This document shows positions 1 to 3,000 of a stretch of DNA of 9,162 nucleotides, in pieces. The stretch's first letter is position 1; each line of letters opens with the position of its first letter. The DNA is from a bacterium. Lineage in GTDB: Bacteria > Babelota > Babeliae > Babelales > JAUWHS01. The position numbers are program-made. The stretch lies in assembly GCA_043818275.1 (NCBI GenBank), contig JBDRFY010000015.1, positions 1 to 9,162 of the forward strand, read 5' to 3'.

Positions 1-3000
1 GATTGTTCAATTAACCAATCTTCAACAAGATTTAATAATAGACATTCTTTCCTTGGAAACGCAATTTTCGTTATTAACTCAAACTCCTTGTGAAAATTTA
101 AACGAACCTGATTTTACAGAACAACTTCGTAAAATTGCCCAAGAATTATCTTTGATTGGTGGCAGGTTAGGCGAGAAAAACCCTGATTTCATAAGGTTTA
201 AAAAATATTATTCTATTTTAGAAATAAAAAATTGGCTACTTTTGGAGAAAGCTGCCAAGGATTGTAAGATAGACCTTGTTTCAATAATTTATTTTTATTC
301 TGACGAAAAAGAGTGTCCAAAGTGTCAAGACCAGCAATTTGTTTTAAATTATATTGGCGAAAAATATCCTTTTTTGAGAATTTACTCTTTTGATTATAAT
401 TTGGAACTTTCCGCGCTAAGAAGTTTAAAATCAATTTATTCTTTAACGAAAACAAAGGAATTGCCAATTATTATCATCAATAGCAAAACTTATTATGGAT
501 TTTTAAACAAAAAAGAGCTGGAAGAAATTTTGGACAAATATGCGGCAGCAAATTCAAACAAAGAAACAACTACTTCAACTGACGAACAAAAAAACAAAGA
601 AGAAAAAAAAGAGAAATTATTTGATTAGAAAATACTAATTATTGTTAATCATTAGTTTCCAACCTTGAGAGCAAACCCCTCGCTTTTAGGCGATAGTAGT
701 TGAGACAAAACATATAGTTACCTAACAGTTATCTAATACTCTTTTGCAAACTTGGTATTAGATTTCATAAAAATTCTTTAATAACTTGACAATAATATAT
801 ATTTTAAGGTAAACTTTTTTATTAATGAACAATCAAAAAGTTATTTTAATTTTTGGTCCCCCTGTGTCTGGGAAAACGACAACTGCTCTTAGATTGAGTG
901 TGCCCTTGAAGTTTCAATATCTTTCCATAGGTGAATTAGTTAGAAACGAAATCATTAAAAATACAGACTTCGGTCGGAAAGCGAGAAAATTCATAGAGAA
1001 TAAATTTGTGTTTCCTAAAAATTTCCTTAAAAAAATTATCATTTCCAATTTGCCAAGAAAGAATAACTTTGTTCTTGATGGCTATCCAAAATCAATTGAG
1101 GAATTATCCGTTTTTAAAAACATTATCACTGAATATAAAATTATACCAATAATTTCTTTAGTATTTGACATAGACAGAGATACCATGGTATTTAGATTGA
1201 AAAACCGCCTTTTTTGTCCACATTGCAGAATGCCAAAAGAAATAGATTATAAAGAATATACTTGTCTATATTGTGGAAAAAAATTAATAAAAAGAATTGA
1301 TGATTCATTGCCCCTTGCTTTAAAGAGATACGAGCATTTCTACAAAAATACCAATAAAGTAATAGCAGAATTACAGAAAGATAGCGTCCCGACAATAAAA
1401 ATAAATGGGAACTCTGATTTAGAAACAGTTTTCCAACAAGCTTTTAAAACATGTCAATCTATTTTATTAGTTAAAAATATAAAACAGCATGCGCATGGTT
1501 AAACTGAAATCAAATATAACGACCGTAAACCACCCTGAGATTGCCGACATTCACTCTGAAAAAGATAGGCGGAATGTTTTTATAGATAAAGCAGGAGCTA
1601 AGAACTTAAACTTTCCATTCTTGTACAAAACGCTAGGAGAAGTTAGACAAATTAGTGGCGAAGTCGATGCCTTTGTCTCGGTTGAACCGTCTCACGAAGG
1701 AGTACACATGAGTCGATTTATAAAAATAATTGGCTATTATTCCAATAAATATCCTCAATTTTTCTGAAGTAAGTAAACTTTTAAGAGACTTACAAAATAA
1801 TTTACAGGAAAAAAATGTACACCTCTCAATTAAATTTAAATTACTTATTTATAAGGAAGCTCCGATAACTAAACAGACTGGATTTGTTTCTTATGATTGT
1901 GAATATATTGGCAAAAAAATAAGTAAAAAAACTAAAATCTATTTAAAAGTTAGAGTCCCTGTAACGACTCTATGCCCGGGGAGCAAAGCAGTTTCAACCT
2001 TTGGAGCGCATAACCAAAGAGGGTTTATAACCGTAATCGTTGAAGCCGTAGAAGAAGTGTCTTTCATTGATCTAATTTATTATGCAGAGAAGTTTGGCGC
2101 AAGTTGTGAAATATTTACTAACGTTAAAAGAGAAGACGAAAAGTTTATGACAGAAAAAGCTTTTCAAAATGCAAAATTTGTAGAAGATTCAGTTCGTTCA
2201 GTTGTTGAACAGCTTAAATACGATAAACGATTTAAAGGATATTATGTTTCTTGTCAAAATATGGATAGTATTCATTTGCACGATACTTTTGCAGAAGTGA
2301 ATAAACTAATATGGTAGAAAAAGAATTGAAATTTAAAATCCAAGACATTAATAAACTCCTTGATAAACTTGATAATTTAGGCGCCAAGAAGGAAAAACGT
2401 GTTTTTGAACGAACAGTAATGTTCGACAATTCTTCTGGTATAATGAAGGTAACGGATGGTAGGTTAAGGCTTAGAACGAAAATAGAAGAAAACGGCACCA
2501 AAGGCGCTCAACTCTCTTACAAAAAGCCTCTCACTAGAAAAGGCATTAAACAAGAAATTGATATAGTAGTTGATATTGGTGATCCTCAAAAAATAGAAAA
2601 AATTCTATACTATGCTGACTATAAACCGGTATCTAGTTATGAGCGATTCCGGACAATCTATTATTTATATGACGCTGAAATATCAATTGATGAATTTCCT
2701 TTCGGCAATTATATTGAGGTAGAAGCAGATAATTTAGAAAAACTTAGAGAGCTTGCGACTAAACTTGATTTTTCAATGGAAAAAAATATAACTTTGTCTT
2801 ATGATACTCTCTACTATAATCAGAGGATATCAGAGGGAAAAGAACCGATTATGCATATAGTATTTACAGATAAAGATTTGGGCAGATAGCTCAGCAGAGA
2901 GAGCGCTCGTATAACATGCGAGAGGTCGGAGGTTCAAGTCCTTCTCTGCCCACAAAATTTATGATAACTGCTGCAAGAAGTGAATTAAAAGGAGTTTTTT

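Follow-up and report, generated by a model that had tools for sequence, protein, structure and literature searches.

Inosine at position 34 of a bacterial leucine tRNA is described for the Lactobacillales, in which tRNA-Leu(AAG/IAG) is edited by TadA in S. pyogenes (PMC11472039) and in Streptococcus and Lactobacillaceae (PMC13249217). The S. pyogenes enzyme edits tRNA-Leu(AAG), whereas the E. coli enzyme does not, and the published TadA loop motif comprises a pyrimidine at position 32, U33, A34, G36 and A38 (PMC11472039). A shift from UUA to CUY codons is also described for the Lactobacillales; according to papers based on GtRNAdb, almost all bacterial tRNA-Leu(AAG) lie in Bacilli, and a wider spread is raised as a question (PMC13249217). 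For valine, a eukaryotic tRNA-Val(IAC) is edited by ADAT2/ADAT3 (PMC8007984), and all possible ANN anticodons, Val-AAC included, are stated to occur sporadically in GtRNAdb (Raval et al., bioRxiv 10.64898/2026.05.15.725136).

The window analyzed here is the whole of contig JBDRFY010000015.1 (C15; 9,162 nucleotides) of the metagenome-assembled genome (MAG) GCA_043818275.1 (G000), which is assigned to Babelota, a phylum of protist parasites. The initial annotation read a tRNA-Val(AAC) on this contig and a tRNA-Leu(AAG) on another as joint substrates of one Babelota TadA. The two genes part company in our analysis, and a misbinned tRNA-Val(AAC) together with a reversible G34/A34(I34) switch in tRNA-Leu is, on balance, the probable explanation of the whole. 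The tRNA-Leu(AAG) is already known from the Lactobacillales; what is unusual in Babelota is that it is phylum-wide, reversible and coupled to position 38.

Compared with the Lactobacillales as described in the papers cited above, Babelota are alike in that AAG replaces GAG one-for-one and never joins it in one genome, tRNA-Leu(UAG) is kept, TadA and tRNA-Arg(ACG) are present, and the genomes are AT-rich. The differences are the phylum, the presence of G38 rather than A38, and the pattern of change: whole families are fixed in the Lactobacillales, whereas in Babelota the state flips within families and genera and in both directions. Additionally, CUU and CUC do not rise at the cost of UUA in Babelota, and editing, reported for the Lactobacillales, is here a prediction from sequence. 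No report of A34 tRNAs or tRNA-Leu(AAG) in Babelota was found in the literature searched, and the supplement of PMC13092985, which covers the tRNAs of 42,109 genomes, may list these genes.

Origin of the contig carrying tRNA-Val(AAC)

The features of the window are given below, in which G002 is a Patescibacteria MAG, G001 is a MAG labelled Beckwithbacteria, and L001 is the 3.7-kb contig C62 of G001.

1..607, forward strand: left flank, 94% identical to G002:C105
608..4528, no strand: insert of approximately 3.9 kb, absent from the matching site of G002; its part 785-4454 corresponds to the whole of contig G001:C62
825..1502, forward strand: adenylate-kinase-like gene of the insert (PF00406, E 1e-21; below all NCBIfam cut-offs)
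1489..2317, forward strand: folE2 (GTP cyclohydrolase I), split between two frames in the window and a single 275-aa ORF in L001
2311..2889, forward strand: CYTH-domain gene, with its final codons and stop within the first 10 nt of the tRNA
2880..2952, forward strand: tRNA-Val, anticodon AAC, A73 at 2952, without an encoded CCA
2913..2915, forward strand: AAC anticodon, A34 at 2913 (C34 in the nearest relative)
2961..3881, forward strand: 306-aa gene, function unknown, starting 8 nt past the tRNA
4199..4330, no strand: dispersed repeat with many copies in G002 and no other in G000
4529..9162, reverse strand: right flank with a POR/iorB-like gene, two RhuM-family genes and an iorA-like gene, 93-98% identical to G002:C72

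The bulk of G000 is Babelota: the named homologues of its TadA come from Babeliales, Dependentiae or TM6, with one named merely "bacterium". Contig C15 very probably belongs to a Patescibacterium closely related to G002 and was wrongly binned into this MAG. On G002:C105, the counterpart of window 1-607 is followed after 61 nt by the sequence corresponding to 4529 onward, which indicates that 608-4528 is an insert in a G002-like Patescibacterium. The top 62 of the 80 loci related to the IorA-like protein are mostly labelled Patescibacteria or its sub-groups (best match 87%, in G002), and none of the 80 titles names Babelota. The window has no match in G004, a Babelota genome of the same genus, nor by blastn in the other contigs of G000, and two of five genomes tested against it gave one marginal match of 42-62 nt each. 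By the flank identity to G002, the caveat of the initial annotation that C15 could be foreign is borne out, and its statement that the genome encodes tRNA-Val(AAC) is not.

The copy of the insert in G001 is probably misplaced too, because it carries the G002-type repeat. Within the insert, the closest other proteins to the CYTH protein are at most 46% identical, with one named match from Roizmanbacteria, and the 306-aa ORF, for which no viral relative was found, has look-alikes only among unnamed Atlas proteins. A longer call of this ORF, from 2916, begins within the tRNA.

Several minor observations concern assembly and binning. The split of folE2, compared with the 99.8% identical L001, is a strain frameshift or an assembly error. 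A 37-nt inverted repeat (89%) at window 2752-2788 and 3842-3878 lies within two coding sequences and brackets the tRNA and the 306-aa ORF, and is possibly the scar of an inversion or insertion. Elsewhere in G000, contig C28 carries a second tRNA-Asp(GTC) without CCA together with foreign-looking genes and contig C63 carries a further adenylate kinase; both are probably more contaminant contigs.

Structure, descent and decoding role of tRNA-Val(AAC)

ARAGORN calls tRNA-Val(aac) at 2880-2953 of the window, and the gene scores 60.1 bits against Rfam RF00005 over model positions 1-71, both as in the initial annotation. All four stems are paired, and the fold is better than that of 198 of 200 shuffles (z -3.3). 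The cloverleaf had been described as having a CCA, whereas the gene ends in C71-C72-A73 followed by CAA and does not encode the tail. Read by eye, CCA is encoded in 42 of the 44 ARAGORN tRNAs of G000, the exceptions being this gene and one for Asp on C28, a 4-kb contig. The D loop lacks the G18-G19 pair, with G19 missing, in agreement with the earlier description, and the tRNA-Val(GAC) of G002 likewise lacks the D-loop GG; in G002, that gene is adjoined by a tRNA-Ile(TAT) (L347). The anticodon is flanked by A32 and U38. The gene is letter-identical in the independent assembly L001 (3038/3044 identical over window 1379-4422), which indicates that A34 is real DNA and rules out a sequencing error.

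Among GTDB representatives and JGI metagenomes, the gene closest to it is a free-standing tRNA-Val(CAC) (L002/L329), with 63 of 75 aligned columns identical and an anticodon arm that differs from that of tRNA-Val(AAC) only at position 34. The Val tRNAs of G000 itself are more distant (50-52 of 75 identical). To judge from this relative, the gene may have arisen by a C34-to-A change in a spare copy of tRNA-Val(CAC). The CAC relative scores 60.0 bits, and inactivity would not follow from the score or the D loop.

Evidence for an editing partner was sought in the Patescibacteria-type genomes. A Babelota TadA query matched none of the three (G001-G003), where the incompleteness of the MAGs makes this a "not found", and G002 has no PF14437 match. 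Within the class of G002, 79 of 151 genomes contain a PF14437 match; most of these matches are partial and none exceeds 90.5 bits, compared with 112 for the full-length match of the G000 TadA, a comparison that is not decisive alone. An Arg pattern gave 44 rows from 39 of the 151 genomes of this class; judged by eye, the anticodon stem pairs in 30 rows, all of them GCG, and does not pair in the 4 ACG rows, which fits decoding without inosine. The loop of tRNA-Val(AAC) departs from the TadA motif at 32 (A), 36 (C) and 38 (U). A role as substrate of the Babelota TadA, proposed by the initial annotation, is rejected: tRNA-Val(AAC) and that enzyme belong to different organisms, and the loop fails at these three positions. 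The claimed bacterial I34 tRNA-Val edited by a Babelota TadA is a binning artefact. This misbinned gene is a warning for tRNA surveys of MAGs.

The gene would be a spare passenger of the 3.9-kb insert, alongside the adenylate-kinase-like, folE2, CYTH and unknown genes, and would be redundant beside the Val tRNAs of a host in which no TadA was detected, its loop being unsuited to that enzyme. If it is expressed, it must in all likelihood be cut from the message of the CYTH gene, the stop codon of which it overlaps, and would carry a plain A34. It is unlikely, in our view, that the gene is instead active and selected within the insert, with an unmodified A34 that helps to read GUU in its Patescibacterium. 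The paired stems and the retention of A35, C36 and A73, which are the identity bases of tRNA-Val, would suit such a role, as would the intact tRNA-Val(AAC) genes in viral records (15 of 16 loci). The identity of the gene in two assemblies could be added, but these are 99.8% identical and show no conservation. Moreover, the gene has no space for a promoter and overlaps the CYTH stop, and tRNA-Val(GAC) is present in G000, G001 and G002, so the G34 isoacceptor has not been replaced. In the class of G002, the 30 best loci from a search of 251 genomes contain Val genes but no AAC form.

The reading of the initial annotation, in which a Babelota cell with a recently acquired C15 uses TadA to make I34 on both Val and Leu under the drive of U-ending codons, is very improbable. 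C15 is in the MAG, and its GC content of 0.317 and its tetranucleotide profile are within the range of the genome, although the latter test is uninformative (0.0118 against a null mean of 0.0117, within the null). Both ends of C15, however, are Patescibacteria DNA with the repeats of that lineage and no Babelota gene, and the contamination estimate for G000 is 4.19%. The same reading is opposed by the Val loop, by the absence of any match to an A34-tRNA pattern in the 261 genomes of the phylum, and by a codon bias that is equal in AAG and GAG genomes.

A restrictive Val-AAC pattern found 20 loci in 185,579 genomes, a lower bound, of which 19 are called Val(aac); they are scattered over many phyla, and some adjoin a Val-TAC duplicate. 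The gene in the window resembles the sporadic A34 genes of Raval et al., as far as these are described there, in being one such singleton, like most of the 19. It differs in having an identifiable setting, the insert, and a probable ancestor, Val-CAC; its host lineage seems to rely on Arg-GCG and to do without TadA. The likeness to the eukaryotic tRNA-Val(IAC), as described in PMC8007984, is limited to the AAC anticodon: the window gene has a bacterial body of CAC descent, no editing partner was found among the genomes searched, and Val-GAC has not been replaced.

Related bodies and viral copies were also seen. Five proteobacterial MAGs (L088, L091, L098, L102 and L106) carry a similar Val-AAC body (38.9-53.1 bits against Rfam in the three scanned) and possibly represent one conserved odd tRNA lineage rather than singletons. 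Among the viral loci, of which some are near-duplicates and some maybe from eukaryotic viruses, ARAGORN calls Val(aac) in the 15 of 16 already mentioned; phages are said to be without such tRNAs (PMC8007984; Raval et al.). In one virus record (G714; 96,884 bp, direct terminal repeats, 100% complete by CheckV), a tRNA-Val(AAC) adjoins a tRNA-Leu(AAG) at L446:8667-8824 within an array of 36 tRNAs and a tmRNA. The 18 kb read of this record contain Arg-GCG/TCG, no Arg-ACG and no PF00383 deaminase.

Repeated switching of tRNA-Leu position 34 within Babelota

The 44 ARAGORN tRNAs of G000 include Leu-AAG (C41:8521-8607), Arg-ACG, Val-GAC/TAC and Leu-TAG/CAG and no Leu-GAG, in agreement with the initial annotation. 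The set has a tRNA-Arg(TCG) (C50:67373-67449) in addition to Arg-ACG, and there is no call for Arg-CCG or Pro-GGG. The tRNA-Leu(AAG) is CCA-ended and is located on an 18-kb contig, C41, directly upstream of secD. It is a true Babelota gene, the single reader of CUU/CUC, at a fixed locus.

A pattern search of 261 Babelota genomes found AAG in 72, GAG in 174, both in none and neither in 15; the counts of the initial annotation (AAG 4 and GAG 14 of 18) were not matched, and those given here take their place. With G000 not counted, every genome is AAG in families f1 (1/1), f4 (4/4), f7 (12/12), f8 (3/3), f15 (1/1) and f18 (2/2). The mixed families are f17 (6/7), f19 (5/6), f12 (24/35), f5 (2/8), f20 (9/80) and f3 (2/41), and nine families have no AAG. 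Genera g53, g95 and g133 contain both states. In 120 fetched loci, a set enriched for mixed families, secD lies directly downstream of tRNA-Leu in 118 (47 AAG, 71 GAG).

On a SecD tree, 15 AAG/GAG changes are needed and 11 are forced by branches with SH-aLRT >=95; the tree comes from a quick search with no bootstrap and a midpoint root, and the direction of its deepest split would need an outgroup. RpoB trees of the first 33 and first 60 genomes force 3 switches. GAG genomes are nested within a large AAG clade of f12, which indicates reversals from AAG back to GAG. Position 34 of tRNA-Leu thus toggles from G to A and back, repeatedly, within Babelota, and the repeated GAG-to-AAG switches proposed earlier are extended to at least 11 forced changes and to both directions. 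Transfer of tRNA-Leu(AAG) to a new site is rejected, as the secD locus is constant in 118 of 120 and the AAG genes of f3 and f20 keep family-like backbones; in-place replacement is possible between the Leu genes of f5 and f18, which share a G31-C39 pair.

The pattern for other A34 tRNAs matched none of the 261 Babelota genomes; a control with G34 in its place recovers Val-GAC from 5 of 5 genomes and Thr-GGT from 4 of 5, and misses Ala and Gly. Among the boxes tested, toggling is particular to Leu and is not seen for Val-GAC or Thr-GGT. The Babelota series, with 72 AAG genomes, many independent switches and pairs within one genus, lets one ask whether TadA must change first, whether position 38 is a gate and whether codon reprogramming follows, and recombinant enzyme and transcripts would suffice for such tests, without culture.

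TadA, position 38 and codon usage

The TadA-like gene reported for G000 is found on contig C13. TadA was recovered from all 60 Babelota relatives searched and from 19 of 20 further genomes; the AAG genome G694 (210 contigs) gave no match. The Babelota protein keeps the HAE and PCxxC (zinc/catalytic) motifs, scores 115 bits in G000, under the NCBIfam cut-off of 150, and has S-P-x-F-G where aligned solved TadAs have D-x-K-x-G, in AAG and GAG genomes alike. No TadA column tracks AAG within families (37 AAG proteins compared with 43 GAG proteins in 864 tests, with a largest |z| of 2.8). A candidate co-evolving residue, the aromatic after P-L-F-G, is mostly lost in the large AAG clade; this candidate was rejected, because the residue is also missing from GAG genomes of f12 and is retained by most AAG genomes of f5, f18 and f20. 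The lack of a tracking column is compatible with a TadA that was permissive before the switches, and also with a complete lack of editing.

Among the 72 AAG rows, 70 have G at position 38, 2 have A and none has U, whereas a hand count of 150 listed GAG rows, out of 176, gives 100 with U and 50 with G. On the SecD tree, 11 independent pairs give 6:0 for A34 against position 38 (median p 0.03, range 0.008-0.125). This coupling of positions 34 and 38 could instead reflect tuning of decoding strength. Relative to the streptococcal loop motif YUAMGRA, which has A38 (PMC11472039), the Babelota tRNA-Leu(AAG) agrees at six of seven positions in 70 genes, all with G38, and at seven in 2. Leu-AAG and Arg-ACG have U33, A34, G36 and G37 in common, and the restriction of toggling to Leu fits the published TadA motifs, which need G36 (PMC11472039).

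Codon usage in G000, recounted on ORFs of at least 150 codons, gives the same ratios as reported earlier (GTT 11352 / GTC 1293; CTT 7238 / CTC 813). The rpoB CUU share is 0.875 in AAG and 0.85 in GAG genomes (p 0.13; 26 vs 27 genomes, in which kin are not independent). In secD, the AAG member has fewer CUC in 14 of 14 tree-picked pairs; this signal was not repeated in a set some tenfold larger, with secD excluded and approximately 5,000 codons per genome (15 pairs, with G624 in place of G622 and one pair added), in which CUC is higher in 7 and lower in 8, and the claim of fewer CUC in AAG genomes was dropped. The same test, which covers this sample of codons rather than whole genomes, reveals no shift toward CUU/CUC from UUA (UUA 7 higher and 8 lower, CUU 6 and 9). 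Since AAG and GAG genomes are equally U-biased, the proposal that a preference for U-ending codons drives A34 is unsupported; U-richness may permit the Leu switch and does not predict it.

The likeliest mechanism is that the Babelota TadA already accepts the U33-A34-A35-G36-G37 loop when a purine is at 38. A G34A mutation would then yield I34, still reading CUU and CUC, and the switch would be near-neutral and reversible and would need no new enzyme change. We lean slightly toward this acceptance of the loop and the resulting I34. The broader proposal, in which TadA is promiscuous phylum-wide and edits the G38 tRNA-Leu(AAG), so that a free G/I switch with at least 11 flips is gated by position 38 and not by the enzyme, is offered tentatively, and we rather doubt it as it stands. 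If true, it would provide a replicated natural series outside Bacilli for the widening of the TadA range and the retention of G34/I34.

A competing account, to which we give a sizeable minority of the probability, is that tRNA-Leu(AAG) works with an unmodified A34, reading CUU by the standard pair, with weak decoding of the rare CUC through A34 itself or through tRNA-Leu(UAG); the toggling would then be drift in small AT-rich genomes, and G38 would tune the loop for the ribosome rather than for TadA. No TadA change tracks the switch, CUC makes up approximately 2-14% of Leu codons in AAG genomes, and G38 departs from the published A38 motif, all as this account would have it. One U34 tRNA may cover a whole box, as G000 has only Pro-TGG for proline, and four engineered A34 tRNAs of four-codon boxes are described as unedited yet functional in E. 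coli (Raval et al.). However, only Leu, with a loop resembling that of Arg-ACG, toggles among the tested boxes, CUC is not lower in AAG genomes in the larger test, and the tRNA-Leu(AAG) tested in PMC11472039 and PMC13249217 were all edited, as reported there.

Two further observations touch on the enzymes. In one study, the standard leucyl-tRNA synthetase marker is described as not identified in any TM6 genome (PMC4776705), and an atypical LeuRS in TM6 could affect how freely the Leu anticodon can change. At two loci, L216 (G007) and L245 (G043), the TadA reading frame continues into a zinc-finger ORF downstream, which we take to be DksA/TraR-like, giving open frames of 276-277 aa.
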